Shown: piece by piece, positions 21,620 through 61,569 of the stretch
Position numbering within the stretch: position 1 is the stretch's first letter
Layout: every line of letters starts with the position of its first letter
Virus record (IMG/VR): IMGVR_UViG_3300033075_001021
DNA: 64,000 nt
Source of the DNA: a virus
Taxonomy: Duplodnaviria > Caudoviricetes
Direction: 5' to 3' (one strand)
Program-made: the position numbers and the translations under genes
The notes under the pieces: generated by a model
What the model was told of the DNA's origin: nothing
What the model saw: only the letters and a program-made list of their open reading frames with translations
Databases searched by the model: none

Positions 21620-21696
21620 TGGAGCCCCCAGTCGGCTTCGAACCGACGTCCCGTCTATACCACAGACAGATTTTGAACCAACTAAACTATGGCGGC
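21620..21696 (-). tRNA. tRNA-Thr(GGT), atypical loop GTGGTAT
   Basis: Cloverleaf, encoded CCA. Confidence 0.75.
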
Positions 21697-21964
21697 TTAT
21701 TTCATAAACGGCTTAGATATTCTCCAAGCCTCTGAAATGTGTTTTTCGGCTTCTTCAATCGCCTCAGCAGCTCTATACAGAGCCAAGGCTAGCTTTTTTC
21801 TTCCACCTTGATGGTCTTTATTACCATCAATATTCAGCTTAATTTTAAGGTGTTCTAAAAGCTCTGAAAGCGCTTCATAATGAAGGTCTCCAATATCGGT
21901 GGCCAATCCTTGAAGGTCACCGTCGTATTTTTCTACAACCTTTTTATGTTTTTCACAACTCATA

Positions 21965-22037
21965 GAGCAGTGGAGCAGAATCGAACTGCCGTCTGAACCT
22001 TGGCAAGGTCCCATAATAGCCGCTATACGACCACTGC
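21965..22037 (-). tRNA. tRNA-Gly(GCC)
   Basis: Cloverleaf, loop TTGCCAA. Confidence 0.9.
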
Positions 22038-22092
22038 ATTGGTGGCTATCTAAACCCCGAACATGGGGAACTTCGCCAATTAGTTTTTACCA

Positions 22093-22164
22093 GAGCAGCA
22101 TGTGGGAGTCAAACCCACGCCCCCGACTTGGAAGGACGGTATGCTATCGTAACACCTATGCTGC
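22093..22164 (-). tRNA. tRNA-Gly(TCC)
   Basis: Cloverleaf, loop CTTCCAA. Confidence 0.85.
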
Positions 22165-22227
22165 ATGGACCAGAGGGGCGGTGTCCCCACCGTGGATTCC
22201 CTTTCAACTCTGGATAATATAAATATA

Positions 22228-22924
22228 CAAGATTGAGCTTAGCCGCCATTTTGTTTTAGGCTATCATTTATCTATGCACCAACCCGACCTCTCAGGGGAA
22301 CCGACACCCACCGCTAAATTATTTTGTTATTAACTTTTAAGTAAATTAAGTCACAATCTAATCCTTCAAGATGTAAACCAATAATTTCTTTTATTAGGTT
22401 TTTATCAATTCCGCACATAATTCTATCTGCCGAATTAGATGATTTATCAACCCATCTTAAATTTTTACTGCGATTATCGTTACGTTTTTTGTTTTTATGG
22501 TCTACCTCCCAACCTTTGGGTTTAATTCCATGAAAAACTTCTGCAACAATACGATGAACCCTAAACGTTTTATTTATTTTGTTAATTTTAATATCAATTA
22601 ACTCATAACCTTCACGTTGTTGTCTTTTTTTCAAAATTCTTCCAGTGATTCTATTTTTAATATCACCATTAGAAGAAACATCGTAATCATAATCTCTAAA
22701 TTGCTTCCAAATAACTGTTTTCATATTTTCTCTTTATAATAAATATAAAGAAATTTAGCGAAAACCGACACCTATGAAAAAAATGTCGGTTTTTTCAGGT
22801 CTGTTTGGCTTGCTACTTCTTTGGTGGTAACGGATTTTCGATAATTTACTGGTCCTCCCAAATTAGGTTCCGTAGTGGCGAACTTCCTCCAGCATTACTG
22901 CCAGCGATAGCTTCTCTTACCTTG
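22228..22924 (-). ncRNA. rnpB: minimal RNase P RNA interrupted by an HNH gene
   Basis: GAGGAAGTTCGCCA pairs with TGGCGGCT (P4); GCTATC/GATAGC (P2); GTAA-capped P3; AGATAAATGAT..AACAAAA 3' signature. Confidence 0.8.
22314..22724 (-). CDS. NUMOD4-HNH homing endonuclease
   Basis: YDVSSNG, RVHRIVA, VDHKNKKRNDNRSKNLRW. Confidence 0.9.
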   Translation of the reverse strand: MKTVIWKQFRDYDYDVSSNGDIKNRITGRILKKRQQREGYELIDIKINKINKTFRVHRIVAEVFHGIKPKGWEVDHKNKKRNDNRSKNLRWVDKSSNSADRIMCGIDKNLIKEIIGLHLEGLDCDLIYLKVNNKII

Positions 22925-23120
22925 TTTATTCTTCTTTGTTTAATACTTCTGCAATTTTCTTAATATCAACATTCGTATTAAATGCTGAAACATCACCTTC
23001 CAGAAGTAAATCTTCGTATTCTTCAGGGAAATTACTTTCAAAAATTTCCGCTGGTACTATGTAATATTTTTCCATAACACAAAGATACGAAATCTTTTTT
23101 AAATGTCAAATAACTCTAAA

Positions 23121-23195
23121 GTCACCCCCACGGGGTTCGAACCCGTAACCTTCGGCTTAAGAGGCCGTAGCTACTTCCACATGAGCTTGAGGGTG
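23121..23195 (-). tRNA. tRNA-Lys(CTT)
   Basis: Cloverleaf, loop CTCTTAA. Confidence 0.85.
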
Positions 23196-23408
23196 ATAAA
23201 ATAAGGATTAATAATCCTTATCGTTTATTAGTTGAACAAGTTCTTCAAATAATTGAATTTTTCTTGGTGCTGTTATTATCCTATAACTCTCAAGAGGGTT
23301 AATAGGAAATAACGTCACACAAGTTGAAAACTTGCTGTACTGTACCCAAATTCTTCTGAATCTATCCCCAAAATGATTCACCAATAACTGTTCCATTTTT
23401 GCGTTTTT

Positions 23409-23495
23409 TGGTGGCCCCGATGGGATTCGAACCCATGATGGTCTTGCGACATCAGTTTAAAAGACTGTTGGTATCAACCACTAACCGACGGAGCC
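23409..23495 (-). tRNA. tRNA-Lys(TTT) with long variable arm
   Basis: Loop CTTTTAA; variable arm TGTCGCAAGAC. Confidence 0.8.
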
Positions 23496-23512
23496 AAAAT
23501 TAATCTTATTTT

Positions 23513-23546
23513 GTACCCCCGTTAGGAATCGAACCAACGTGAGGCA
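23513..23546 (-). pseudogene. 3' fragment of a split tRNA-Lys
   Basis: T-arm-like GTTCGATTCC plus CGGGGGT complementary to GCCCTCG of fragment 24157-24200. Confidence 0.7.
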
Positions 23547-23547
23547 C

Positions 23548-23999
23548 TTAAGTTTTTTGCTTTTCATTTAAGAATTTATACCAACCAAATTGTATTGCAG
23601 TTTTACGTCTGTGACAATTAGCACACCTAACATCACATTTATTAATCTCTGCGAATACTGTTTCTAACCTATAACCCTGTGATACTAATGTGCTAATATC
23701 TTTATATTTATTAGAATCATCTCTATGGTCAAATTCTAAAACAATTGGGTCAGTTTCACCACAATCAATACATGGATGGGTTGATAAATATTCAAATACT
23801 TTTATCCTAATTAAATCTCTATTCTTTCTATTTCGTTCATAAACATCAACCTTATGTTTTTCACGGTTATTGTTATAATACGCTTTAGATTTTATTCGAC
23901 TACATTCCCGACAAATAGTACTGTAACCATCACGTTTGGTTTTATTCTTATTGAAAAGAGCTAAGTCTTTTTCTTGTTTACAAATGCTACATATTTTCA
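23548..23999 (-). CDS. HNH endonuclease (tRNA-associated)
   Basis: CIDCGETDPIVLEFDH..CANCHRRKT. Confidence 0.85.
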
Positions 24000-24056
24000 T
24001 AATTCTATTTTTATATAAATATGTGGCTTTTAACAAAAAGACAATTTAAAAGCTTA

Positions 24057-24133
24057 GGTGGGCCCCAAGGGAATCGAACCCTTTTTTTGACTGGTTAAAA
24101 GCCAGTGGCAATACCAAATTTTGCTAGAAGCCC
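24057..24133 (-). tRNA. tRNA-Lys(TTT), replacement copy on the HNH element
   Basis: Complete cloverleaf between the two halves of a split tRNA-Lys. Confidence 0.8.
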
Positions 24134-24156
24134 AATTTTATACCCCCACTAGCTTT

Positions 24157-24200
24157 AACGGTTTAAAAGACCGTTGCCTACACCAGTTTGCTACGAGGGC
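24157..24200 (-). pseudogene. 5' fragment of a split tRNA-Lys(TTT)
   Basis: Acceptor 5' strand, D arm and anticodon arm ACGGT CTTTTAA ACCGT; no T arm. Confidence 0.75.
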
Positions 24201-24376
24201 TTGTACATGACTTCCCCCAGCATCTCTGGTGAGAAGTCTTATCGTTTACGTTTACGTTTTATCATGTTATATTTAATCATACGTGAAATACAATTACTTT
24301 TAGCTACATCAGCCAAATATGCGTCTATTAATCTATAATCAATTTGTATATACATCTTTTTTAATTTTTAATTGTT

Positions 24377-24492
24377 GTGGGGGCGGCTGGAATTGCACCA
24401 ACGTTTTTCAAATTTACAGTTTGTTGATTAAATTTGTTTTTGCTGCAAACATTCTTAACCAGAATGTATTAGTCTAACATTTCAACACCCCC
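24377..24492 (-). tRNA. tRNA-Tyr(GTA)-like with insertion in the D region
   Basis: Acceptor, CAAA CTGTAAA TTTG arm and T-like arm; D arm replaced by a CAGCAA-motif insert. Confidence 0.5.
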
Positions 24493-24499
24493 ATATTTT

Positions 24500-24573
24500 G
24501 AGCCTCATTGGTTACTCGAAAACCATTCCCCTATTTACGAAACAGGTGCGTCACCATATACGCTTATGTGGCA
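24500..24573 (-). tRNA. tRNA-Thr(CGT)
   Basis: Cloverleaf, loop TTCGTAA. Confidence 0.75.
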
Positions 24574-24615
24574 TTTGCTAGGTTTTAATTTTCACCAGAC
24601 CTAACAACTGGCTGA

Positions 24616-24699
24616 GAGCCTTCGGCCAGATTCGAACTGGCGGGGGATTACTCCGCTCGCTTACAAGGCGAGTGCAATCGACCACTATGCGACGAAGGC
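24616..24699 (-). tRNA. tRNA-Thr(TGT) with long variable arm
   Basis: Loop CTTGTAA. Confidence 0.8.
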
Positions 24700-24761
24700 A
24701 TTTTGAATTTCTATGATACTTCTCCACACGGAAGTTCTATGAAATTCTAACAGTCTCATAC

Positions 24762-24852
24762 GGTGCAGATGGAGAGAATCGAACTCTCGTCCGCTGGTTG
24801 GAAGCCAGCTATAATATGTCGTTAATTCGACGAACCACTATACGACATCTGC
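24762..24852 (-). tRNA. tRNA-Gly(TCC) with extra D-loop hairpin
   Basis: Loop CTTCCAA; GTCG-AATTAA-CGAC in D loop. Confidence 0.75.
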
Positions 24853-24910
24853 ATTACAGGATGATTTTTTTTCCAATAAAAGTGGTTTAACTTTGCTGAA
24901 CTCATCCTTT

Positions 24911-24994
24911 GTGGGTCGTGAAGGACTCGAACCTCCGAAAGTCGAATGACGGGGAGGTTACAGCTCCCTGTGATTGCCGCTACACAAACGACCC
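24911..24994 (-). tRNA. tRNA-Tyr(GTA)
   Basis: Cloverleaf. Confidence 0.9.
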
Positions 24995-25148
24995 ATATGT
25001 TCATTTTTTCTCTAACATTTTCCAGAAATGAACAAAACTACATACTCACTCGTTTGATGCTTGTCGCCATACCGCAGTAGTCCAACGGTCAGCTGCTAGC
25101 CTCACAGCCTTAATCATCTCCAATAATCAGGCGCAAGCATCGCTATAT

Positions 25149-25232
25149 GTGGGTGAGGTCGGATTCGAACCAACCATCCATGCGGATTAAGTAATTTACA
25201 GTCACTCGCCTAACCAACTCGGCATCTCACCC
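25149..25232 (-). tRNA. tRNA-Tyr(GTA)
   Basis: Cloverleaf. Confidence 0.85.
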
Positions 25233-25310
25233 AATTTAACCCATTTAATCGTAAGGACTTAGTCTTCATCAAATCACTAGGGTTATCATGATTGATTACT
25301 TCCTTACTTT

Positions 25311-25385
25311 GTTACCCCAGAAGGATTCGAACCCTCACCCAGCCACGCTCAAAACGTAGGATGCTAACCGTTACACCACAGGGCA
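25311..25385 (-). tRNA. tRNA-Gln(TTG)
   Basis: Cloverleaf. Confidence 0.85.
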
Positions 25386-25492
25386 ATATAATTTTAACAT
25401 CAACATCGATTACCACAATTACGATGAACCTTCGGGCCAACCGCCCAATATTCTTTTTTTGCTACGTGGATAAAGAACTTTGATGTTGTAGC

Positions 25493-25567
25493 GTTGCGCT
25501 GAATGGAGTCGAACCATTGTCCTCTGCTTCAAAGGCAGTTATAATAAAGCCGTTATACGACAGCGCA
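25493..25567 (-). tRNA. tRNA-Gln(TTG)
   Basis: Cloverleaf. Confidence 0.85.
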
Positions 25568-25584
25568 ATATTTAAAGAACTTCA

Positions 25585-25657
25585 GTTGCCTCATTAGGAC
25601 TCGAACCCAAACTTAAGCGCTCAGAACGCCCAGTGCTTGCCATTACACCATGAAGCA
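25585..25657 (-). tRNA. tRNA-Gln(CTG)
   Basis: Cloverleaf. Confidence 0.85.
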
Positions 25658-25662
25658 ATATT

Positions 25663-25750
25663 GTCGGGGTGACAGGAATCGAACCTGCGGGGAGACTTGC
25701 TCACTCGGCTCCAAACCGAGACCGCTACCTGACTACGGGCCTACACCCCG
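25663..25750 (-). tRNA. tRNA-Pro(TGG) with long variable arm
   Basis: Loop TTTGGAG. Confidence 0.8.
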
Positions 25751-25814
25751 ATAATTTGAATTTCTACGATTCCTCCTCCTAACGGAAGTTCTATGAAATC
25801 CTAACAGTCTCCAC

Positions 25815-25889
25815 GGTAGGGTAGACAGGACTCGAACCTGCACCGTCTTCATCCCAAATGAAGTGACCTACCAATTGGTCAACTACCCT
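25815..25889 (-). tRNA. tRNA-Pro(TGG)
   Basis: Cloverleaf. Confidence 0.9.
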
Positions 25890-25895: not shown

Positions 25896-25930
25896 AAAAA
25901 ACCCCAGTCAAATTATGAACTGGGGTTTTT
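25896..25930 (-). terminator. attenuator terminator of the KYTQPG tRNA operon
   Basis: CCCCAGT-loop-ACTGGGG followed by T6. Confidence 0.85.
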
Positions 25931-25948: not shown

Positions 25949-26053
25949 TTACACCAAATCGATGTCTTTTACAGTATATAACATACCCAGTCCATTAAGA
26001 GGTGTGCCCCCTTGTGGTTTTTGTTTCGGTTGATATGTCGTATACTTTTTCAT
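25949..26053 (-). CDS. leader peptide MKKYTTYQPKQKPQGGTPLNGLGMLYTVKDIDLV
   Basis: Codons 2-18 are all K/Y/T/Q/P/G, matching the downstream tRNAs. Confidence 0.9.
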   Translation of the reverse strand: MKKYTTYQPKQKPQGGTPLNGLGMLYTVKDIDLV

Positions 26054-26076: not shown

Positions 26077-26118
26077 ATAAATATGTACAAAGATACAAAA
26101 GTTTTTTGAAATGTCAAA
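26077..26118 (-). promoter_or_regulatory. tandem TAnnTTTG promoter plus TATTTAT motif
   Basis: TTTGACA..GTATCTTTG then TATTTAT. Confidence 0.8.
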
Positions 26119-31180: not shown

Positions 31181-31387
31181 TCAAATGTCCAATTTTTTTT
31201 CGTCTTTTTTTGAAAAATTTTCATTAACTTGTTGATTACCACGCTGATGCCTAGGCTCATAAGGACATCTTAAACAGCCACTGCCGCAGCAATAACCACG
31301 ATTTAGGTGATATTCTTCTGTCATTACCACGTTTCCACCATCATAATAATAATCCAATCCTTCCTCAAATCTTTTTTTATCCTTCAT
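31181..31387 (-). CDS. DUF5522-like protein
   Basis: HLNRGYCCGSGCLRCPY. Confidence 0.75.
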   Translation of the reverse strand: MKDKKRFEEGLDYYYDGGNVVMTEEYHLNRGYCCGSGCLRCPYEPRHQRGNQQVNENFSKKDEKKLDI

Positions 31388-32027
31388 AGGTTTTTCCAGC
31401 TTGTTTTAATTCTTCCGCAAATTGATTTGGTAATCTGGCCCTAAGCCTTTTAAACCAATCGTTGGTCTTTATTTTACAAGAATAAATATTGTCAACACCT
31501 TTTTTGGTTTTGGCAACACCCTTGCAAATAACACCTTCGGATAAATTAAACTCATTGTTTTTAACCCTTTGAACAAATTCTATGTTCAAATTTCCTTCAT
31601 AGACAATTTTAGGAATACCTAAATGTCCAAAATCCCTGACAAATTGTTTTGGTTGAATAAAGCCTTTTTTGTATTGAGAGATATCAAAAAGTACGATATC
31701 AAATTCATCATTTCCAAACTCATGTTGTCCAAATGCTGATTTGGTCCCTAAAAGTTCAGCAAAACATACAAATGATAATGTGTTTCGATATTCCCTCGAC
31801 TTAAAAATTTCCGTTAAACCCTTTTCATATTTTTCTCTAAAGAGTTTTATTGCAAACCCAAATTGTTCATTTGATTCATCAATCATTACATTTCTTGAAC
31901 CAAACTTATAAAACCCTCTTTTGTGTGAATATTCAAACCTTAAGTTTGAACCATCCAATTTATCAAATGCTATAATGGGTAATCCCCAATAATCCCCGTA
32001 ATACGGTATACTCTCATAATGTTTCAT
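31377..32027 (-). CDS. RNA ligase-like nucleotidyltransferase
   Basis: KLDGSN, FAE, LFDI, EGVICK, KIK. Confidence 0.75.
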   Translation of the reverse strand: MKHYESIPYYGDYWGLPIIAFDKLDGSNLRFEYSHKRGFYKFGSRNVMIDESNEQFGFAIKLFREKYEKGLTEIFKSREYRNTLSFVCFAELLGTKSAFGQHEFGNDEFDIVLFDISQYKKGFIQPKQFVRDFGHLGIPKIVYEGNLNIEFVQRVKNNEFNLSEGVICKGVAKTKKGVDNIYSCKIKTNDWFKRLRARLPNQFAEELKQAGKTYEG

Positions 32028-32762: not shown

Positions 32763-32835
32763 GTATGATGTGTTGGACTTGAACCAACGTCCCCGCCCTG
32801 CACGGGCAGTATCCTAGTCCCCTAGACGAACATCA
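32763..32835 (-). tRNA. tRNA-Ala(TGC)-like, atypical loop CGTGCAG
   Basis: Cloverleaf, G33. Confidence 0.5.
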
Positions 32836-32928
32836 CTAACTACAACCTCACCATCGGCAAACAGATTGGTCGTAGAAAGGACTTTAGCTTGTATAAGGTT
32901 GCCGCCCTATATTTTGCATTACCTTTTT

Positions 32929-33004
32929 TGGTGGAGCGCTAGGAAATCGAATCCTACCACAGTGCTTGCAAAGCACCATCGCCAGCCTTGGTACATGGCA
33001 CCCC
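32929..33004 (-). tRNA. tRNA-Ala(TGC)
   Basis: Cloverleaf, G3-U70, CCA. Confidence 0.85.
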
Positions 33005-33013
33005 ATAAATTAA

Positions 33014-33087
33014 GTGGACCGTATCGGAGTCGAACCGATGACTCGACAGTGCAAATGTCGTGTGTTAGCCAGCTATACCAACAGCCC
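33014..33087 (-). tRNA. tRNA-Ala(TGC)
   Basis: Cloverleaf, G3-U70. Confidence 0.9.
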
Positions 33088-33162
33088 ATTACCAGATATT
33101 ACCAGATAATATAATAATGTCTTGATTATCAATATTATTTATCTGGAAATATTACCAGAAAA

Positions 33163-33234
33163 GCCGAGACTGGGGGGTTCGAACCCCGACCTTCACCGTG
33201 ACAAGGTGGTATGCAGCCATTACACCACAGCCTC
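33163..33234 (-). tRNA. tRNA-Asp(GTC)
   Basis: Cloverleaf, 4-bp T stem. Confidence 0.8.
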
Positions 33235-33293
33235 GAAAAAAACATGGCCCCTCATGTGACTAGCACGAAGTTTGGTTGTCATCCAGCCATTTA

Positions 33294-33377
33294 GTAGCCC
33301 CCGTGGGAATCGAACCCACTCCGACCTGACGGCCCCGACTTGAAAGGACGGTCACTCACCCAATTGTATTGAGGGCC
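33294..33377 (-). tRNA. tRNA-Glu(TTC) with long variable arm
   Basis: Loop CTTTCAA. Confidence 0.75.
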
Positions 33378-33385
33378 ATTCTGCT

Positions 33386-33473
33386 GTACCGCCGACGGGG
33401 GTCGAACCCGCACGTTCTTTTTCAGAACACCGCCTTGAAAGGGCGGCGACATAACCAATTAGTCGACAGCGGC
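33386..33473 (-). tRNA. tRNA-Glu(TTC) with long variable arm
   Basis: Variable arm GTTCT-GAAAA-AGAAC. Confidence 0.8.
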
Positions 33474-33479
33474 ATTTTT

Positions 33480-33553
33480 GTAGCCTCGCACGGATTCGAA
33501 CCGAAATTTCTGCCGTGAAAGGGCAGCGTCCTGACCAGTTAGACGACGAGGCC
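33480..33553 (-). tRNA. tRNA-Glu(TTC)
   Basis: Cloverleaf. Confidence 0.9.
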
Positions 33554-33555
33554 AT

Positions 33556-33915
33556 TTATTTTCCTTTATAACTACGAGCTTCTGTTAAAAACTTTTCATC
33601 ATCTCTATTGCTATGTTCAATATTATGGCAATTTGAACATATCAACTCGCATTTATCCAATTCTTTAATAATAATATCCCAAGCTCGATTTGCGACATTA
33701 CCAATTGTAAATTCTTTTTCTGCTGGATTCTTATGATGAAACTCCAAAGCAGATGGATGTTTATCATAACCACACCTATTACACTTTCCACCAAGGTATT
33801 CAATAGCTTTTAATTTTGTTCTATAACGTCTAATCTTAGTGTTACATGAATTACATCTAGTTCTATTTTTACCCTGTAATTGTTTAATAGGTTTATCACA
33901 TAATTTACAATTCAT
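33556..33915 (-). CDS. HNH endonuclease (tRNA-associated)
   Basis: CNRCGYDKHPSALEFHH..CSNCH; wedged between tRNA-Phe and tRNA-Glu. Confidence 0.85.
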   Translation of the reverse strand: MNCKLCDKPIKQLQGKNRTRCNSCNTKIRRYRTKLKAIEYLGGKCNRCGYDKHPSALEFHHKNPAEKEFTIGNVANRAWDIIIKELDKCELICSNCHNIEHSNRDDEKFLTEARSYKGK

Positions 33916-33990
33916 GTGGTACGAGTCGGAATCGAACCGACGTTGTCGTGGCTCTTCAGGCCACCGCTAAACCATCTCAGCTACCGCACC
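33916..33990 (-). tRNA. tRNA-Phe(GAA)
   Basis: Cloverleaf. Confidence 0.9.
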
Positions 33991-34448: not shown

Positions 34449-34453
34449 ATAAC

Positions 34454-34766: not shown

Positions 34767-34769
34767 AAT

Positions 34770-51080: not shown

Positions 51081-52214
51081 TTACAACATTTTGTACAATT
51101 TTTTATCATCGTACTCCATCATGTATTCCTTTATGGTTCCAACCTTGCCTGTTTGAAGTGCGAAATACAAGCCTGTAAAGGAATCCAGACCCATTTTCTT
51201 TGTAACTTCGAATACCGCAGTAGCATACGCTTTCCTTTCGGCAGCTGTTATGTTCTTTGGCTTTCTTGGTTCCAATTCAACCCAAGCTTCGTTAAGCTTA
51301 GCTATCAACGCATCGTAGCTAGCCTTTAACCTGAAGATTTCTTCACGTCTTTCTGGGAAAGTCGCAGCAAATTCTTCGATTTCATTGGCTTTAACGACAG
51401 TCAATATGTTATGCTCAGCAGTTTTTGACTTTAAGTGGTGAACCGCAACATACGCTGGGTTCTTGATTTTAACACGATTGAAGTTACCGTCCACAACCAC
51501 ATAACCTTCTTCAGACCATGGCATACCTTCAAATGTTCTTATCAAAGCACCGAAGTCCTTTGCGTTCAAATCAAAAGCTTTAACCAACGGGATACCAGTC
51601 AACAAAGAAAAGTTTTTCAACACTTCATAGTTGTCCTCAACCAAAGTTTCTGCATTTCTTGCGGCCAATAATGTAATAGATGATTCACCGTGAGGCTTTA
51701 CTACTATATTATATGGTGTTGTTAATTCAAATACAAAGGTTGTTTTCTTGAAAGACTTGAACAATGATTTCTCAATATTATACTTTTCTTTCAATACCTT
51801 CCAGAATAACTCATTGAAAGTAGTTCCCATCTTGTTGTTTACTTCCCCTTCACCTTCAGCAGTACCAGTAGTTGCAGCAAACCATTCTTGCTTATGCCAA
51901 TCCCAATAAACTTGAATCATTGTACCATCGACTTTTTCAAGTACAACGGCAGAATTCCAGTCTATCTTAGCGGCTTGTGATTCACCGTGATTGAAGAACT
52001 TTCTGAATGACATAGACATAACCTTCCATGTATCCCTTTCAAGAATAAGACCACGACAGTCTTGTACCTCTGGGCATGACATATCAGATTCAATTTGGTC
52101 ATATTTCAAATGAATCTTTGAGGTATATGTACGACATTTTAATTTAAAATCTTGTATTGCCTTAGCTAACCCAAATTTTTTTATATACTTAACTACTGAT
52201 AACTCCTGTATCAT
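51081..52214 (-). CDS. Rnl1 (T4 RnlA-like) RNA ligase
   Basis: DCRGLI, KFFNHGE, EKVDGT, FEL, EGYVV, RVKIKN. Confidence 0.9.
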   Translation of the reverse strand: MIQELSVVKYIKKFGLAKAIQDFKLKCRTYTSKIHLKYDQIESDMSCPEVQDCRGLILERDTWKVMSMSFRKFFNHGESQAAKIDWNSAVVLEKVDGTMIQVYWDWHKQEWFAATTGTAEGEGEVNNKMGTTFNELFWKVLKEKYNIEKSLFKSFKKTTFVFELTTPYNIVVKPHGESSITLLAARNAETLVEDNYEVLKNFSLLTGIPLVKAFDLNAKDFGALIRTFEGMPWSEEGYVVVDGNFNRVKIKNPAYVAVHHLKSKTAEHNILTVVKANEIEEFAATFPERREEIFRLKASYDALIAKLNEAWVELEPRKPKNITAAERKAYATAVFEVTKKMGLDSFTGLYFALQTGKVGTIKEYMMEYDDKKLYKML

Positions 52215-52938
52215 TATTTCTTTTTTTATGTGACTCTGAAATTTTTCTTTTTGTTTCTTCACTCAAAACACGCCCACTTCTTTTTTTACTTTGTTCAATT
52301 TTTAATTGTATTGCCGCATCAACACCCATAATTTCTTCATACGTTTTACCTTTATTCGGATTTTTCCACCCTTTTCTAGCCTTAGATAAACTTTCTTTAT
52401 GTTTATCTGACATTGGTTTTTTCTTTCCTTTATTAGATTCTGAAATTTTTCTTTTTGTTTCCTCACTTAAAGGACGAAATTTTTTCTTTTTACCTTTTAA
52501 TAATTCCGACATTTTTTTTGCTGTTTCTGATGCCCACGGTTTTTGTTTTCCTTTATGTGCATCACTTATTTTTTTCTTATGTTCATCAGTTAATTTTTTA
52601 CCTTTATGAAATTTTGAAACATTAGCTCGAAGAACTTCTTTTTTAGGGTTATTTGAAAATGTATCACCCCCAGTGCCCCCCTCTGCAATATTATAACCAC
52701 CAATATTTTTACTAATAAACTCTTTTTCTTTTTCGTTTAAAGTATCGATATTGTCACATTCAAATATTATTTCCCATTTAAAATTATGAAAACCATATTT
52801 TTTAATCGCATTATAAAATAACCATTTCTTTTTATTAAAGGCTAATTTATGTGATTGTATTCTTTTTTCTAATGTCCCCTTTGTTTTACCAATATAAAAT
52901 TTACCATTTATTGTGTTGGTTGCTTTGTAAATTATCAT
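52189..52938 (-). CDS. GIY-YIG homing endonuclease with NUMOD3 repeats
   Basis: IYKATNTINGKFYIGKT, GYNIAEGG, SEETKRKISES repeats. Confidence 0.9.
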   Translation of the reverse strand: MIIYKATNTINGKFYIGKTKGTLEKRIQSHKLAFNKKKWLFYNAIKKYGFHNFKWEIIFECDNIDTLNEKEKEFISKNIGGYNIAEGGTGGDTFSNNPKKEVLRANVSKFHKGKKLTDEHKKKISDAHKGKQKPWASETAKKMSELLKGKKKKFRPLSEETKRKISESNKGKKKPMSDKHKESLSKARKGWKNPNKGKTYEEIMGVDAAIQLKIEQSKKRSGRVLSEETKRKISESHKKRNNDTGVISS

Positions 52939-53965: not shown

Positions 53966-54895
53966 TTATTTTGAAATATTTGTTACAACACCACGAATTT
54001 TTATTTTTTGTGTTGGTTTCCAATCAGTTATTTGATTTGACATGACAGGTTTACCGCCATTTGGATTCACTGCTAACGTAACATGAGGAATCGCATTTTT
54101 TGATGGATATCCATTAACTTCTAAAGCAATTGCCATATCACTTTTACCTAAACGCTTAGTTGTCAAGCCAACTTCTTTACCTAAATCCTCTTTATTAGCG
54201 CTTTTTCCAAATTCAATTGTCATGTGATGGCCAATAAAATTCCATCCATCTGGAATTTCATCTTTATACATGCGATAAAGCATATTCCTTGATATTTCAT
54301 CCAACACAACACCTGAATACAAGATATTGGAATCGGGATACATATCCTTAGATTCCAATATCTTCTTAAGTGTTAACGGACCCACACTCTTATGTGTCTT
54401 AACCATTTGTTCAATTTTGTCAAATGGAACACCATGCTGATTCCTTGCTGCCAAGGCTTCAGTTGTTAATCCACCAGTACCAATGTCAACAATTTGGATA
54501 TTTTCATCTGCGTACCCCAACTTCAATGCATGTACAACGTAAGCCTTAGCCTCGTTTGCCTTTAAGTTGGTGTTGTCAATAACAACTGGTGAAATTCCTT
54601 CATCCATTGACCTTTTAGCATTGGTAAGGTTTTTTGAGTGCATACGACTAAGGTCAATAAAGTTTTTAGATTCATTCATCTTAGCGAAAAAGCCTCTGTA
54701 ATCACCAGTTGCTTCAATCAAGTTGTCGGTTGAGTGTATAACACCTTCGCCAACCAAAGACTTAGCTTTGGTTGACTTGCCGCCACCAGATATTCCACGC
54801 ATGATAACCAATACCTTATCTGGTCTTGTTACAGGTACACCCAATGAGTTCTTTTGAACTTCTTCACGTAATATTTCTTTGATTTTATTCTTCAT
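53966..54895 (-). CDS. polynucleotide kinase plus 2',3'-cyclic phosphodiesterase fusion (RNA end healing)
   Basis: GISGGGKST, IDNTN, RNQHGVP; HHMTI and PHVTL. Confidence 0.8.
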   Translation of the reverse strand: MKNKIKEILREEVQKNSLGVPVTRPDKVLVIMRGISGGGKSTKAKSLVGEGVIHSTDNLIEATGDYRGFFAKMNESKNFIDLSRMHSKNLTNAKRSMDEGISPVVIDNTNLKANEAKAYVVHALKLGYADENIQIVDIGTGGLTTEALAARNQHGVPFDKIEQMVKTHKSVGPLTLKKILESKDMYPDSNILYSGVVLDEISRNMLYRMYKDEIPDGWNFIGHHMTIEFGKSANKEDLGKEVGLTTKRLGKSDMAIALEVNGYPSKNAIPHVTLAVNPNGGKPVMSNQITDWKPTQKIKIRGVVTNISK

Positions 54896-56567: not shown

Positions 56568-56659
56568 GCGGAGAACAGCGGAGTCGAACCGCACCCAGCT
56601 TCTTAAGCCGAGCGTCACGCTTAGCAGGCGGACCCCCTCACCGTCAGGGTTTGCTCTCC
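56568..56659 (-). tRNA. tRNA-Ser(GCT)
   Basis: Type II cloverleaf. Confidence 0.85.
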
Positions 56660-56664
56660 GTAGT

Positions 56665-56738
56665 GTAGTCCCAAAGGGATTCGAACCCCTATAGTCTGCT
56701 TAGAAGGCAGACGTCCTATCCAGTTGAACGATGGAACC
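56665..56738 (-). tRNA. tRNA-Arg(TCT)
   Basis: Cloverleaf. Confidence 0.9.
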
Positions 56739-56742
56739 ATTC

Positions 56743-56834
56743 TGGACCGCTAGGCGGGATTCGAACCCACATTTGATATTATCGCAGCTCCAATTACAGA
56801 TAACGGTTTAGAAGACCGATTTGGCTACAAGCGG
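56743..56834 (-). tRNA. D-armless tRNA-Arg(TCT)-like RNA
   Basis: Acceptor, 8-nt linker, CTTCTAA arm, long variable region, T arm, CCA. Confidence 0.65.
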
Positions 56835-56879
56835 ATGTGTGAATTTATTTGACTTGATTAACAATATCACTAAAAAGTA

Positions 56880-56953
56880 GGTGGCCTCGGCGGGGGTCGA
56901 ACCCACAACAAACGTTTAGGAAACGCTTATGATAACCATTTCACCACGAAGCC
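56880..56953 (-). tRNA. tRNA-Arg(CCT)
   Basis: Cloverleaf. Confidence 0.85.
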
Positions 56954-56955
56954 AT

Positions 56956-56984
56956 TGGTAGTCCCAGAAGGATTCGAACCCTCT
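56956..56984 (-). pseudogene. 3' fragment of a split tRNA-Arg(ACG)
   Basis: GAGGGTTCGAATCCTTC TGGGACT ACCA; pairs with GGTCTCA of 57522-57566. Confidence 0.8.
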
Positions 56985-57396
56985 AATTATTTTCAACATA
57001 GTGTAATTTTCTATGGCAATTTGAACATAAAATAATACACTTCTCAACTTCCCTCATTATTTTTTCAAGACTGTATGTGTTATAGATTAAATTTGAAACT
57101 TCAAATTCTTTACTATTCCTATCTTGATGATGAAAATCTAAACAGGCTATATGTGTTTCGCCACATTTTTCGCATTTTAGTTTAGACTTAAAATCACGAT
57201 ACCATTCTTGGTTTCTTTTCTTATTTTTTAGATTTCTATTTAGCGTTGTTTGTTTATTACGGTTGTAAGATTCTTTTCTAATTTCTTTCCAACATAATAC
57301 ACAAGCGCTATGATAAACACCATTTTTTTTATTTTTAAAAGGAAATTGATTCAACTCTTTTTCCTTTTTACACCTTGAACAAAATTTTCTTTCCAT
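56983..57396 (-). CDS. HNH endonuclease (tRNA-associated; start MERKF)
   Basis: CEKCGETHIACLDFHH..CSNCHRKLH. Confidence 0.85.
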   Translation of the reverse strand: MERKFCSRCKKEKELNQFPFKNKKNGVYHSACVLCWKEIRKESYNRNKQTTLNRNLKNKKRNQEWYRDFKSKLKCEKCGETHIACLDFHHQDRNSKEFEVSNLIYNTYSLEKIMREVEKCIILCSNCHRKLHYVENN

Positions 57397-57442
57397 AACT
57401 TTTTTTAATAAATATTGCGAATTATTAAAAAAGTTCGTAACT

Positions 57443-57519
57443 GTGACCTTAGAGGGATTCGAACCCACCACTTCTCTTGGTTCGTAGCCAAGTGTTTTAT
57501 CCAGTTAAACTATAAGGTC
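57443..57519 (-). tRNA. tRNA-Arg(ACG), replacement copy on the HNH element
   Basis: Complete cloverleaf. Confidence 0.85.
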
Positions 57520-57521
57520 AT

Positions 57522-57566
57522 ATCTGATTCGTAGTCAGGTGCTTTATCCAGTTAAGCTATGAGACC
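57522..57566 (-). pseudogene. 5' fragment of a split tRNA-Arg(ACG)
   Basis: GGTCTCATAGCTTAACTGGATAAAGCACCTGACTACGAATCAG. Confidence 0.8.
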
Positions 57567-57570
57567 ATTT

Positions 57571-57645
57571 GTGGTTCCAGAAGGATTCGAACCCTCACCA
57601 AACTTACTTCGAAGGCAAGTATGCTGTCCATTACACCATGGAACC
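57571..57645 (-). tRNA. tRNA-Arg(TCG)
   Basis: Cloverleaf. Confidence 0.85.
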
Positions 57646-57819
57646 ATTAATATTCCCAACCCTTATGTTTTATGTTAGGAATTTCGGTTTTAGGAACCCT
57701 GCGAATCTTACGGTTGCGCTGGTTCTTTAACCATTTTCTTGAATGTGACTTATGACCAAGAAATCTTTCAAGATGTTCAATCTTTTCTAAACATAAACTC
57801 ATAAAATAAGATTATTTTA

Positions 57820-57890
57820 GTCGCGTAGAAGGGAGTCGAACCCTCTTGGCCTGCCTTATGAGAGCTGGCTGTATTCCAATAACCTACGCA
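57820..57890 (-). tRNA. tRNA-Met(CAT) with reduced D arm
   Basis: Loop CTCATAA. Confidence 0.65.
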
Positions 57891-57900
57891 ATGTGGTTAA

Positions 57901-57975
57901 GCGGGTCAGGTGAGAGTCGAACTCACATCTCGCAACTTAACAGGTTGCCGTTTTAACCATTAGTACTACCGACCC
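57901..57975 (-). tRNA. tRNA-Asn(GTT)
   Basis: Cloverleaf. Confidence 0.85.
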
Positions 57976-58040
57976 ATGAGCCCCGTAATTCAATTTCATT
58001 ATCGTATCCCAAACGGGGCCACAAGAATACGATTCCAATT

Positions 58041-58113
58041 GAGGACTGTGAGAATTTCGAAATCTCGACCCGCACCTTAACAGGGTGCCGCTCTGCCTCT
58101 GAGCTAACAGTCC
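58041..58113 (-). tRNA. tRNA-Asn(GTT)
   Basis: Cloverleaf. Confidence 0.85.
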
Positions 58114-58183
58114 ATTGGTGTCCATGAACGTTTTAAACCGTGTGTGCCCCATGGACAGAGTGCTCACAACCTTCTATCTTTAT

Positions 58184-58474
58184 TTAATCTTTAATGATTA
58201 AATGTATATCAACCCCATTGACTGAATTATTAAAATGTAAAAATGATTTCTCAATATCAATCAGTGTGAAATCATAATCGACAATTTCAACATAATAATT
58301 TTTATCAATTTGTTTACAACCGTTATTTTTTAATTGTACCGAATTAAATATTTCGTCACCTTTTTGTGTATTAAAAAATGCCCAGATTGTATCTAACTTA
58401 TTTAATTGTGAACACATGTTATCAATGTATTCTTTAGTTTGGTTTTCAAACCCTAAAATTTTTATCAAATTCAT
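58184..58474 (-). CDS. hypothetical protein
   Basis: ORF after endonuclease. Confidence 0.55.
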   Translation of the reverse strand: MNLIKILGFENQTKEYIDNMCSQLNKLDTIWAFFNTQKGDEIFNSVQLKNNGCKQIDKNYYVEIVDYDFTLIDIEKSFLHFNNSVNGVDIHLIIKD

Positions 58475-58475
58475 A

Positions 58476-59123
58476 TTATTTACGACCTTTTAGCCAGCCG
58501 TCCAATATATAAGTATGTAACTCGTCAAGTTTTACTTTTTTGTTAATCCCATCCTTAGTTATCCAGCAGGTACCATATTGAGAGTTCGTTTTTCCAATAC
58601 CGTAACCTACTTTCTTTTGGCTCATCAATTTTTTTGTTTCCTCTGAATGTGACATTCCTAAAAATCCAGAGCTACCAATATGATTGTGGTTTCCACTTTG
58701 ATATGTTTTACGAACACTTTCACTTAGCTTTCTTTTCCATTCTTCATAAAATTTTTTATCTGTTTTTAACTTAGTTGTAAACGCTTTATTTCCTTCTCTA
58801 CAACAATTAATTTTTTGTTCTTCAGTTAAGAAACCTCCAGTACCACCTAAACCTAAATTCATACATTTGTCATCTTGTATCAACTCTAAATTTACAATAG
58901 CTTTTTCACGCTCAATTAATAATTCTCTACTTTCACAGAACTCCAAGATTTCTTTTATATGGTTCTCTTTACCATATTTCCTGATGCTATATCTAAGACG
59001 TTTCCCACTTCCCATGTAACCATCGTCAAGATTACTGGTACTATGCATTCCGATATAATATCTACCAGTGACCACACAAGTGGTTTTATAGATATAGTGT
59101 ATGTTTGCTTTTTGCCTTCCCAT
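58476..59123 (-). CDS. GIY-YIG (Seg-like) homing endonuclease (start MGRQK)
   Basis: YIYKTT..YYIGMHST..DGYMGSG, HSEETKKLMS. Confidence 0.85.
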   Translation of the reverse strand: MGRQKANIHYIYKTTCVVTGRYYIGMHSTSNLDDGYMGSGKRLRYSIRKYGKENHIKEILEFCESRELLIEREKAIVNLELIQDDKCMNLGLGGTGGFLTEEQKINCCREGNKAFTTKLKTDKKFYEEWKRKLSESVRKTYQSGNHNHIGSSGFLGMSHSEETKKLMSQKKVGYGIGKTNSQYGTCWITKDGINKKVKLDELHTYILDGWLKGRK

Positions 59124-59157
59124 ATAAATAAATATACGGGAAGTACAAAAAAGTCGA

Positions 59158-59245
59158 TGGAGGATTGGGTGGGATTCGAACCCACGATGGTCTTGCGACA
59201 CTGGGTTAACAGCCCAGACTTTTCGGCCTCTAAAGCAACCAATCC
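59158..59245 (-). tRNA. tRNA-Asn(GTT) with long variable arm
   Basis: Variable arm TGTCGCAAGAC, CCA. Confidence 0.8.
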
Positions 59246-59250
59246 ATTAT

Positions 59251-59342
59251 GTCGTGCAGATGGGATTCGAACCCACATTTGATGTTATCTCAAGATGCCA
59301 GTTACAAGTGTGATGTATATAAGACACCGCTGCTACTGCACG
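59251..59342 (-). tRNA. D-armless tRNA-Ile(TAT)-like RNA
   Basis: Same architecture as 56743-56834. Confidence 0.6.
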
Positions 59343-59554
59343 AATTTGTAGCGACGACGGGAGTTGCGCCCGCTTATCCTCTTAATACCGCTCTAACTCT
59401 ACATGGTGATAATTTTCTTCTGTCCCAACATCCCGTTGAACGCAGTTACTCTCTTATCGTTTGCTTTGTTAGAAGCATTAGTCTGGACCCCTATTAAGGG
59501 TTACTCGGTTCGTCCGAGCGAGGTCTGACCTCCCCATCCCCAATTAAAGAACTT

Positions 59555-59627
59555 GTTGACCCTACAGGATTTGAACCTGTGACCTTATGATTATGAGTCA
59601 TTTGCTCTACCGCTGAGCTAAGGGTCA
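59555..59627 (-). tRNA. tRNA-Met/Ile2(CAT)
   Basis: Cloverleaf. Confidence 0.85.
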
Positions 59628-59806
59628 GAAAATAAAAGTATTTTTTAATAGTAGATATTCATCGATTGATAATTCTTTTGCTAAAATCATGTCAATCTTC
59701 TCAACATCTATATTCGGCGTATTAAGGATTTTGAATAAAACTTCTAATGTTTTATCCTTAGATACACCAGCATCTTTAAATGCCTCTATTAGTTTCTCTA
59801 TCATTG

Positions 59807-59888
59807 TTGTGCCCGTGGGAGTCGAACCCACCTTGTTCCGAAGAACCCACCGTATCAGGATGGTGCCTAAACCGCTCGACCAGAGCAC
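59807..59888 (-). tRNA. tRNA-Ile(GAT) with long variable arm
   Basis: Variable arm GTTC-TTCG-GAAC. Confidence 0.8.
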
Positions 59889-59894
59889 AATATT

Positions 59895-59967
59895 GTGGGC
59901 ATACCAGAAATCGAATCTGGGTTTCTTGAGTATCAGTCAAGCGTTATAACCACTCTACTATACGCCC
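59895..59967 (-). tRNA. tRNA-Ile(GAT)
   Basis: Cloverleaf. Confidence 0.85.
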
Positions 59968-60041
59968 AATTTTGCAGTTTTTAAGTCATATCAAGGGACG
60001 GAGGTGCAAGCTCCAAAACTTGGGGAGGGGTTTAACCCTAA

Positions 60042-60133
60042 GGGCGCATGATGGGATTCGAACCCACGGTGTTTGATATAATCTCATTCTGGTTCACAGC
60101 CAGATTCCATCGACCACTAGGACAACACACGCC
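60042..60133 (-). tRNA. tRNA-His(GTG) with long variable region
   Basis: Loop CTGTGAA. Confidence 0.75.
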
Positions 60134-60219
60134 ATGTTGCTGTTACGGTTGGATTTACACCAACTTCTCCGCTTGTACTTTACGGTGCATTATTCACATA
60201 TGCTACACTAACAATGTTT

Positions 60220-60295
60220 GGGTAATTGAAGGGGCTCGAACCCTCGACCTCCTGAATCACAATCAGGCGCTCTAACCAACTGAGCTACAACTACC
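60220..60295 (-). tRNA. tRNA-His(GTG)
   Basis: Cloverleaf with G-1. Confidence 0.9.
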
Positions 60296-60391
60296 ATTTT
60301 GATAAATCCAAGGTTATCAACCTTGCATACGGATGAGGTATGTCCTTATGGAATCGAACCAACACAGCCAGTGCATCGGAAGATTTATCTT

Positions 60392-60482
60392 GCGGAGAGA
60401 ATGAGACTCGAACTCATGCGGCAACTTTCGTCACCGACTCGCTTTCCAAGCGAGACCGATACCAACTTCGGATGACCTCTCC
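60392..60482 (-). tRNA. tRNA-Ser(GGA)
   Basis: Type II cloverleaf. Confidence 0.9.
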
Positions 60483-60488
60483 AATTTA

Positions 60489-60576
60489 CATACCCGTGTG
60501 GGATTCGAACCCACGGACCCCGATTAGGGGCCTCCGATTTCAGGTCGGTGCATTCAGCCTCTCTGCCAACAAGTAT
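60489..60576 (-). tRNA. tRNA-Ser(TGA), atypical (C33, possible 8-bp acceptor)
   Basis: Loop CCTGAAA; ATACTTGT/ACGGGTAT. Confidence 0.65.
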
Positions 60577-60580
60577 ATAA

Positions 60581-60672
60581 GCGGAAGCGGACGGATTCGA
60601 ACCCTCAGACGATATTGCTACCGCCCCACTGTTTTCAAGACAGGGCCCCGCACCAATGGGGTCAGCGCTTCC
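60581..60672 (-). tRNA. tRNA-Ser(TGA)
   Basis: Type II cloverleaf. Confidence 0.9.
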
Positions 60673-60676
60673 AATT

Positions 60677-60847
60677 GCTAATGGGGGAGGACTCGAACGC
60701 TCCACGGTGCGATTCAATAAACAGCAATTTGTGCTAGCTAGCTTGTGGTCAACCCGTTACTGCTTATCTATCTCGTTATCACCACCCCTGAGACAAAGGG
60801 GTATGTCTGCCATTGAGTCTTTTGACTCAGATTTCATCACCCATTAA
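60677..60847 (-). ncRNA. oversized tRNA-like RNA (~170 nt)
   Basis: Acceptor TAATGGG/CCCATTA, D-loop hairpin, CCCCT-TTGTCTC-AGGGG arm, ~75-nt variable region, T arm. Confidence 0.6.
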
Positions 60848-61006
60848 TTTGGTTTTCAATTCAATCAAAGAACTATAAACTGATTCAAGCCAATCAACGA
60901 TTTCTTTTGCTGAATAGTTGTTGTTTTTATACGCATCTAATTCTTCTTTGGTAATGCGTATTTGTTCATCTAATGTTAATTTTGTTTCGAAATTACTATT
61001 ATTTTA

Positions 61007-61092
61007 GCACGGATGGTTGAAGTCGAATCAACAAGCTACTATTACTTCGCACAGTTTTGGAGACTGCTTACCTCGCCAATGGATGCACCCGT
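61007..61092 (-). tRNA. tRNA-Trp(CCA) with long variable region
   Basis: Loop CTCCAAA. Confidence 0.75.
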
Positions 61093-61097
61093 ATTTT

Positions 61098-61170
61098 GCA
61101 CGAACATTCAGATTCGAACTGAAAACTGTAGTTTTGGAGACTATTATGATGCCGTTTCACCATGCTCGTG
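61098..61170 (-). tRNA. tRNA-Trp(CCA)
   Basis: Cloverleaf. Confidence 0.85.
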
Positions 61171-61334
61171 TATATATAAGAACTTTTCCTTTCTCTTTTA
61201 CAAACTTCAGCTCTGTTGAAAGGCCCAGTGCTAAAGCTTTTTGTTGATATTCCTCAACAATCTTGTCAAAATCCCTTTCTAACTCTTTGGGTTTCACCGT
61301 TCCTAGTTTCCTATAAAGTTCATCTGACATAATG

Positions 61335-61367
61335 AAAAAAGCCTCTGGATTTTAGGTCAGAGGCTTT
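61335..61367 (-). terminator. attenuator terminator of the RINHMSW tRNA operon
   Basis: AAGCCTCTG-loop-CAGAGGCTT followed by T-tract. Confidence 0.85.
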
Positions 61368-61395
61368 ATATTGTGAATCGTGATTTGCTGAGTTT

Positions 61396-61494
61396 TTATC
61401 CCCAAGTATCGTCACTATTAAGCATGACCTGTCCGTTTGAATTACTACGTATAATCCAATTAATCGAATTCATATGTCTGTTAATAGTTCTCAT
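61396..61494 (-). CDS. leader peptide MRTINRHMNSINWIIRSNSNGQVMLNSDDTWG
   Basis: 19 of the first 20 codons are R/I/N/H/M/S/W, matching the downstream tRNAs. Confidence 0.9.
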   Translation of the reverse strand: MRTINRHMNSINWIIRSNSNGQVMLNSDDTWG

Positions 61495-61527
61495 TGTTTT
61501 TATGTTTGTGGGTTTTCCCGTTAAGTA

Positions 61528-61569
61528 ATAAATATATGCAAATATACGAAAGATTTTTTAAAAAGCAAA
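61528..61569 (-). promoter_or_regulatory. tandem TAnnTTTG promoter plus TATTTAT motif
   Basis: Part of a ~70-bp near-identical repeat (61489-61558 vs 34589-34658). Confidence 0.8.

Follow-up and report, generated by a model that had tools for sequence, protein, structure and literature searches.

Probable leader-peptide attenuators in front of amino-acid-sorted tRNA gene clusters in an uncultured phage

Leader-peptide attenuation and the control of phage tRNA genes

The multivalent leader-peptide attenuators of enterobacteria, ilvGMEDA (Ile/Leu/Val), ilvBN (Val/Leu), and thr (Thr/Ile), respond to more than one amino acid, and trpL, hisL, pheL, and leuL are leaders for a single one. To our knowledge, the genes regulated by all described leader-peptide attenuators are those of amino-acid biosynthesis, amino-acid transport, or an aminoacyl-tRNA synthetase. 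Here we describe four units in a 64,000-nucleotide stretch (the window) of the IMG/VR record IMGVR_UViG_3300033075_001021, which comes from an uncultured phage of the Caudoviricetes. Each unit consists of a promoter, a short open reading frame (ORF), an intrinsic terminator, and a cluster of transfer RNA (tRNA) genes. The sequences of these units indicate that they are, with good probability, ribosome-mediated leader-peptide attenuators that control the transcription of tRNA genes.

The window units are built like the ilvGMEDA, ilvBN, and thr leaders: an ORF with control codons lies close to the promoter, a terminator follows it, a segment upstream of the terminator is a competitor for its 5' arm, and several amino acids are represented in one leader. 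They differ from the enterobacterial attenuators in what they appear to regulate. The genes behind the window terminators are tRNA genes and not biosynthetic enzymes, which sets them apart from the targets of described attenuators and makes the product the same molecule as the one that would be sensed. Furthermore, up to seven amino acids are represented in one window leader, the four leaders jointly cover all 20, and the anti-antiterminator is weak in folding models.

Two other systems are close in part. In E. coli pheST with its pheM leader, a leader peptide rich in cognate codons controls a component of the translation supply, as proposed here; pheST is, however, the synthetase of one amino acid in a cell and not a phage tRNA array. 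T-box riboswitches, which control genes of tRNA charging and amino-acid supply, also choose between a terminator and an antiterminator according to tRNA charging. Unlike the window units, they bind uncharged tRNA directly and need neither a ribosome nor an ORF. The window has no T-box match at Rfam gathering thresholds, and T-boxes are not known to be typical of Bacteroidota. The Rfam leader families (Thr_leader RF00506, Phe_leader RF01859, and others) likewise gave no match in the window at gathering thresholds; for units 1 and 4, the two that were searched below threshold, the best leader scores were 15-19 bits against a required 55 (E 0.5-2.6).

Phages are known to carry tRNA arrays and repair functions. 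T4 counters PrrC with its tRNAs together with Rnl1 and Pnk, and T5-like phages, mycobacteriophages, and huge phages are rich in tRNA genes. The window resembles these arrays in having a large tRNA set beside RNA ligase, kinase, and CCA-adding genes. How phage tRNA genes are controlled is largely unknown, and we found no organism with leader-peptide attenuation of tRNA genes. A full-text literature search returned no description of such attenuation or of demand-driven phage tRNA arrays, in agreement with a sequence-only reading of the window, which had proposed the attenuators and knew of no precedent. What is new here is the use of tRNA genes as targets, the product-sensing loop, the sampling of 3-7 amino acids per sensor, the coverage of all 20 amino acids, and the retuning of leaders between lineages.

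Four tRNA clusters behind a common header

All 56 tRNA genes that ARAGORN found in the window lie on the minus strand, as do the promoters, leader ORFs, antiterminator segments, terminators, and neighboring genes described below. A 57th tRNA at 22094-22164 was added by Rfam and was called as Gly(tcc) when ARAGORN was run on the excerpt. The 57 genes carry 34 anticodons and cover 20 of the 20 amino acids. ARAGORN and Rfam together bear out the grouping seen by the sequence-only reading, in which the tRNA genes are sorted by amino acid into four clusters that jointly cover the full set. Cluster 1 (21620-25889) contains Pro, three Gln, two Tyr, three Thr, three Lys, and two Gly genes. Cluster 2 (32763-34448) contains three Asp, two Phe, two Glu, and two Ala genes. 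Cluster 3 (36984-39981) contains two Cys, three Val, and six Leu genes together with one tRNA that has a 6-nucleotide (nt) anticodon loop. Cluster 4 (56568-61169) contains Trp, four Ser, two His, two Ile, two Met(cat), three Asn, and four Arg genes, and it ends at a terminator at 56562-56541.

The same reading had described these clusters as four operons. That description holds insofar as four amino-acid clusters stand behind leaders; as a statement that each cluster is a single operon it is too strong, given that promoter-like sites lie inside some clusters and that a few tRNAs stray from them. Cluster 1 includes small ORFs, an HNH endonuclease gene, and a promoter-like site at 23110, and cluster 3 includes an HNH endonuclease gene and a promoter-like site at 38852. 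Among the strays, tRNA-Gln(ttg) at 34693-34765 is upstream of promoter 2 and falls outside the leader-gated clusters because it directly follows a GOLLD-like RNA unit. A tRNA-Arg at 53371 is separated from cluster 4 by the terminator at 56562-56541 and two promoters. A tRNA-Asp at 30059 and a tRNA-Asn at 29834 are located 2.6 kb below cluster 2, ahead of a terminator at 29499-29481. The unit 2 transcript may run through an RNA-ligase gene to these two tRNAs and that terminator, and an extension of unit 2 to the tRNA-Asn would fit the Asn codons of leader 2.

A common header precedes each of the four clusters, as had been claimed: a Bacteroidota-type promoter, an ORF of 26-34 codons, an intrinsic terminator, and then the tRNAs. 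The promoters, of the Bacteroidota -33/-7 type, are located at 26088-26118 (unit 1), 34639-34669 (unit 2), 40155-40185 (unit 3), and 61539-61569 (unit 4). Each matches the pattern TTTG-N19-TAnnTTTG, which occurs 26 times in the window against 4.4 expected, and three of the four headers have an exact 25-mer in common. An A-rich untranslated stretch of 32-44 nt connects the -7 box with the leader ATG. The leader ORFs have 34 codons in unit 1 (25949-26053), 28 in unit 2 (34508-34594), 26 in unit 3 (40042-40122), and 32 in unit 4 (61396-61494).

The terminators that follow the leaders are located at 25896-25930, 34452-34485, 39986-40015, and 61335-61364 in units 1 to 4. Their predicted hairpins are G+C-rich, have energies of -10.6 to -15.1 kcal/mol, and are each followed by a T-run. 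In unit 1, tRNA-Pro begins 6 nt past the T-run; tRNA-Asp in unit 2 and tRNA-Cys in unit 3 begin 5 and 4 nt past it. These distances leave no space for a promoter between the terminator and the first tRNA, which means that the first tRNAs of units 1-3 can be made only by read-through. In unit 4, a 57-codon ORF (61157-61330) is present between the terminator and tRNA-Trp.

Leader codons match the downstream tRNAs

The sequence-only reading had noted that the control codons of each leader specify almost only the amino acids of its own cluster. This match is strong in leaders 1 and 4 and is seen from about codon 8 in leaders 2 and 3. Leader 1 has only K, Y, T, Q, P, or G at residues 2-18, and each control codon can be read by a cluster 1 tRNA, including GGG by the Gly(tcc) gene at 22094. 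In leader 4, R, I, N, H, M, S, or W accounts for 17 of the 18 residues at positions 2-19. Codons 8-18 of leader 2 specify F, E, D, or A with one Asn, and codons 8-17 of leader 3 specify only L, V, or C. Over residues 2-19, the fraction of residues that belong to the leader's own set is 0.94, 0.56, 0.61, and 0.94 for leaders 1-4, and the sets of the other clusters give 0.00-0.39.

Comparison with other peptides of the window, a check that had been suggested, also favors the match. Among 49,908 stop-free 18-residue windows in six frames, none outside leaders 1 and 4 reached their counts, and the counts of leaders 2 and 3 were reached by 138 and 20 other windows. When the 20 amino acids were relabeled at random, the observed total was never reached in 200,000 trials (P < 5e-6). 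A further idea, that the leaders sample isoacceptors through unusually varied synonymous codons, found no support; 37 distinct codons were counted against 34.3 expected (P = 0.16).

Relatives of the four units were collected by a promoter-word search of IMG/VR and metagenomes. The search yielded 36 distinct units that belong to the same four leader families, named here by the one-letter codes of their sets (KYTQPG, FEDA, LVC, and RINHMSW), and in each of them a terminator and the expected tRNAs are present behind the leader. A blastn comparison of the unit 1 header with GenBank phages gave no match. The control columns of the aligned leaders contain mostly synonymous and in-set variants: 19 synonymous, 15 in-set, and 4 out-of-set in KYTQPG; 13, 17, and 6 in RINHMSW; 12, 5, and 5 in LVC; and 8, 6, and 7 in FEDA. 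The leader tails vary freely, as in KYTQPG, where the tail shows 13 synonymous types of change against 50 amino-acid types. In the KYTQPG and RINHMSW families, the ORF insertions and deletions come in multiples of three, and the LVC alignment has one odd row. Because of this three-nucleotide periodicity and the predominance of synonymous and in-set changes in the control columns, the leader ORFs appear to be translated and to act as sensors. Furthermore, the control columns remain mostly within their sets while the tails are free, indicating that selection acts on which tRNAs are sampled and not on the peptide sequence.

The same promoter was also seen directly in front of tRNA-Met(cat) genes in L010, L013, L016, L017, and other IMG/VR loci (L numbers denote individual loci). 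No leader ORF was found before these genes by a script that looked for an ATG within 90 nt and at least 12 codons. A possible explanation of the leaderless arrangement is that the initiator tRNA cannot be sensed by elongation stalling. A separate observation concerns CUA-anticodon tRNAs of the amber suppressor type (labeled Pyl by ARAGORN), which are present in or near the arrays of L005, L043, L055, L070, L072, and L081.

A cellular origin of the design was considered and set aside. A scan of 185,579 species genomes by the exact promoter word returned only two tRNA-leader matches, and both look like mis-binned phage contigs; the scan depends on the exact word, and its low yield is no evidence that hosts are without the design. 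One match is locus L252 (PLXT01000115.1), a 170-kb contig in a bin labeled Methanobacterium, which carries an F/E/D-type leader and a tRNA array. The other is locus L290 (CAUYTX010000233.1), a 20-kb contig in a Gammaproteobacteria bin, which carries the promoter and a matching tRNA array with no clear leader ORF. Both are probably mis-binned phage sequence.

Leaders and arrays in phages with other amino-acid partitions

If the leaders are tuned to their arrays, then a phage that divides the amino acids differently should carry differently composed leaders. This expectation, that leader content tracks tRNA content in other phages, was borne out in five further genomes. The IMG/VR record G001 has two leaders whose sets are W, E, D, K, R, G, T, L, Y and Q, P, F, N, V, I, S, H. 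Their own-set fractions are 0.87 and 0.83, compared to 0.09-0.10 when leaders and sets are exchanged. Record G002 displays yet another split, and its two leaders have own-set fractions of 0.78 and 0.73 compared to 0.22-0.23 crosswise.

The remaining three genomes are huge phages in GenBank whose records carry no annotation and which show the same leader design as the window. LR745206.1 (635 kb) and LR756502.1 (642 kb) contain seven units each. In both, a leader of 16-17 codons with six or seven Gln codons stands before tRNA-Gln genes only, and a Ser/Arg-rich leader stands before tRNA-Arg and tRNA-Ser. The true assignment of leaders to arrays is the single best of 5040 possible assignments in each of these two genomes. 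LR756501.1 (735 kb) contains at least three units, and its true assignment is the best of 6. The design is thus conserved across lineages that partition the amino acids differently, and this cross-lineage matching of leaders and arrays, seen in the sequences alone, is the strongest evidence that the units are attenuators.

Terminators co-vary with an antiterminator segment

A stalling attenuator needs a leader segment that can pair with the terminator in place of its 3' arm. Such a segment, complementary to the terminator 5' arm or loop, had been reported for all four window units and was recovered at codons 20-26, with 10, 7, 7+4, and 6+4 base pairs (bp) in units 1 to 4. The candidate antiterminator segment of unit 1 (25985-25996; codons 20-23) forms 10 bp with the terminator 5' arm, and this duplex has an energy of -16.4 kcal/mol (P = 0.02 against dinucleotide shuffles). 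That of unit 2 (34523-34531; codons 22-24) pairs over 7 bp, reaching from the 5' arm into the beginning of the loop. In unit 3 (40056-40072; codons 18-23), the core of the pairing is 7 bp with the 5' arm, out of 7+4 bp in all. The unit 4 segment (61420-61430; codons 22-25) pairs with the terminator 5' flank, arm, and loop through two helices, one of 6 bp and one of 4 bp.

Compensatory changes show that the segment and the terminator co-evolve. The unit 2 segment carries a G-C to A-U compensatory change relative to L075, L077, L086, and L104, and the unit 3 pairing carries an A-U to G-C compensatory change in L002 and L206. The unit 4 pairing shows two compensatory pair changes in L009 and one in each of L011, L013, L016, and L017. 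Examples of exchanged pairs are GACUGGG/CCCAGUC against GGCUGGG/CCCAGCC, GGUCGAG/CUCGACC against AGGUCA/UGACCU, and AGGUCA/UGACCU against GAGUUA/UGACUC.

Co-variation was assessed by duplex energies and swap permutations in preference to column-wise pair counts, as gaps and register shift from row to row in the alignment of the terminator loops. When the search was made from codon 17 onwards, the best duplex with the 5' arm was found at codons 17-29 in all 36 units; with the entire ORF open to the search, this was its position in most units. Matched pairs of segment and arm average -13.3 kcal/mol and outperform both swaps within a family, made between units with different arms, and pairs drawn across families. 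The within-family permutation gave P < 2e-5 overall, with 8e-4 for LVC, 3e-4 for RINHMSW, and 0.016 for KYTQPG.

Proposed mechanism and position of the ribosome

How would such a unit work? A strong promoter of the Bacteroidota type would start the transcript, and the short ORF would be translated while it emerges from the polymerase. When charged tRNAs are plentiful, the ribosome would pass the control region (codons 2-19) and then the segment at codons 20-26, and it would halt 23-34 nt before the terminator. The terminator hairpin would then form, and the transcript would end ahead of the first tRNA. When any aminoacyl-tRNA of the set is scarce, the ribosome would stall in the control codons and the codon 20-26 segment would stay free. 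The free segment would capture the emerging 5' arm of the terminator, letting the polymerase read into the tRNA genes. Because the products are the sensed molecules, a unit would exert negative feedback on the supply of tRNAs for its 3-7 amino acids, any one of which could open it (OR logic). We infer both the stalling response and its physiological trigger. The trigger could be the loss of host tRNAs after shut-off, a mismatch in codon use, amino-acid starvation, or anticodon nucleases.

Despite their differing tails, all 36 units keep 23-34 nt between the leader stop codon and the stem of the terminator. A terminator is able to work behind a terminating ribosome at such distances (PMC4824070). 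The observed spacing therefore allows the terminator to act and is too long for the terminating ribosome to open the stem.

This geometry bears on an opposite logic, in which translation of the leader licenses tRNA transcription, either because the ribosome melts the terminator or because it shields the RNA from Rho, so that tRNAs are made when translation is active. In favor of this logic, equilibrium folding detects no strong anti-antiterminator, and the position of the first tRNA right behind the terminator implies that some read-through is required in any case. However, the stop codon is too far from the stem for melting, and terminators work at that distance. Moreover, licensing by translation gives no reason for a co-varying segment at codons 20-26 that is complementary to the 5' arm, and none for leader codons that match the downstream tRNAs. 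We consider this logic unlikely.

Folding with the ribosome footprint masked, proposed as a check by the sequence-only reading, gave results that cut both ways for a stalling attenuator. In transcripts cut before the terminator, the mean upstream pairing of the antiterminator segment was 0.69 without a ribosome and 0.46 with one on codons 6-14, a decrease being seen in 32 of the 36 units, and a 1:2 stem was predicted by RNAalifold in the LVC family. These effects are modest or ambiguous and do not amount to strong support for the switch.

Several results weigh against the attenuator reading. In unit 1, a stalled ribosome does not make the segment more available (0.42 to 0.50), and the upstream pairing does not fall. 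At equilibrium, transcripts that stop short of the 3' arm form the antiterminator even without a ribosome (P 0.57-0.89), which indicates that the anti-antiterminator is weak and that the design may be a kinetic one. In units 1 and 4, where the segment has its end 33 and 16 nt upstream, a ribosome that has reached the stop codon does not cover it. The switch may owe its action to the kinetics of folding and to a ribosome positioned between the two segments. The swap test for the FEDA family was not significant (P = 0.13, n = 5), and the unit 4 antiterminator is short (6+4 bp), its duplex alone being not significant (P = 0.09). At the level of the leaders, leaders 2 and 3 open with a shared six-codon motif outside their own sets, so that the matching run begins at codon 8; this motif is common to many relatives. 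Impurities are also present, namely an Asn inside the run of leader 2 and a Thr in leader 4. The distal tRNAs of clusters 1 and 3 could be expressed leader-free from the promoter-like sites at 23110 and 38852. Finally, a sensor based on stalling reads charged tRNA and cannot separate the loss of a tRNA from starvation, and extra tRNA would be of no help in starvation.

Even with these points, the attenuator of the trp/his/ilv stalling type that had been proposed for the four units is supported by an ORF that looks translated, a terminator, a co-varying antiterminator, and leaders that track their arrays. A further alternative accepts the attenuators as real and takes the released leader RNA or peptide, acting in trans, as the main product, with tRNA control as a secondary effect. 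By their coordinates, the released RNAs would be about 180-210 nt long, and they would be abundant given strong promoters and terminators that look efficient. The rnTrpL and peTrpL products of the Sinorhizobium attenuator are reportedly trans-acting. In the leaders described here, it is the amino-acid set that is conserved and not the peptide sequence; the tails and spacers vary freely, and from lineage to lineage the one thing that the leaders follow is which tRNAs lie downstream. A trans-acting main product is therefore, in our estimate, somewhat less probable still than licensing by translation. As for the idea that the leaders encode small phage proteins of the usual kind, or are ORFs that arose by chance, ahead of terminators that leak constitutively, with a coincidental or compositional likeness to the tRNA sets, the signal-like or membrane-like hydrophobicity of leader 3 taken alone and the less extreme counts of leaders 2 and 3 (138 and 20 other windows) are outweighed by the match in 4 of 4 window units (P < 5e-6), its recurrence in five further genomes with a unique optimum among 5040 in two of them, and the confinement of replacements to the set, making this the least credible of the explanations.

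Taken across the giant Bacteroidota phages, the units suggest a broader picture, to which we give only slightly better than even chances. Such phages would have closed-loop control of tRNA supply for all 20 amino acids, in which multi-amino-acid leaders test the speed of decoding and open the arrays on demand. This control would replace host tRNAs that are lost to shut-off or to tRNA-cleaving defence without the need for constant expression, and the partition of amino acids would be re-dealt between lineages with the leaders retuned accordingly.

If the attenuator reading is true, the units would belong to the few sensors that put out the very molecule they sense, and a textbook mechanism would be widened to 3-7 amino acids per sensor. 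It would also offer a simple reason for the sorting of phage tRNA arrays by amino acid and a direct way to ask when giant phages require tRNAs of their own, be it for codon mismatch, host shut-off, or anticodon-nuclease defence. In practical terms, the leaders would provide compact orthogonal sensors of decoding speed for Bacteroidota. Published huge-phage genomes that carry no annotation would turn out to contain an undescribed regulatory layer.

Neighboring genes, a GOLLD-like RNA, and unusual tRNAs

Genes for RNA repair and processing sit between and beside the tRNA clusters. They encode a T4 Rnl1-type RNA ligase (51081-52262), two more proteins of RNA-ligase families (48428-49495 and 31377-32027), an AAA_33 kinase-like protein (53966-54895), and an enzyme of the CCA-adding/poly(A) polymerase family (62784-63992). 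Judged by these gene assignments, the region looks like an island for tRNA supply and repair, which is no proof of a role in defence. The HNH homing-endonuclease gene in cluster 1 is located at 22314-22724, with the promoter-like site at 23110 upstream of it. The one in cluster 3 is located at 37077-37559; the promoter-like site at 38852 is about 1.3 kb upstream, and six tRNA genes lie between them.

An ORF-poor stretch of 1.1 kb (34766-35900) was considered as a fifth leader and rejected, as it corresponds to a GOLLD-like large RNA. This RNA was located at 34772-35186 on the minus strand and probably extends up to promoters at 35779 and 35897. It is a full-length match to RF02032 with E = 5e-19, and its score is 74 bits against a gathering threshold of 150.

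Nine tRNAs of the window (Lys, Thr, Glu, Asp, Val, Cys, Asn, Ile, and His) are 84-91 nt long and have extra bases between the anticodon arm and the T arm. The variable loops of tRNAs for these amino acids are normally short. The nine genes are located at 23409-23495, 24616-24699, 33386-33473, 34361-34448, 39231-39316, 39894-39981, 59158-59245, 59806-59889, and 60042-60132. Most of them have a copy of normal length with the same anticodon nearby; Thr(tgt) has Thr(cgt) instead. The tRNA with the 6-nt anticodon loop in cluster 3 (38464-38551) is a Leu/Ser-type tRNA-like gene, to which ARAGORN assigned no anticodon and which Rfam scored as a tRNA at 33.5 bits.

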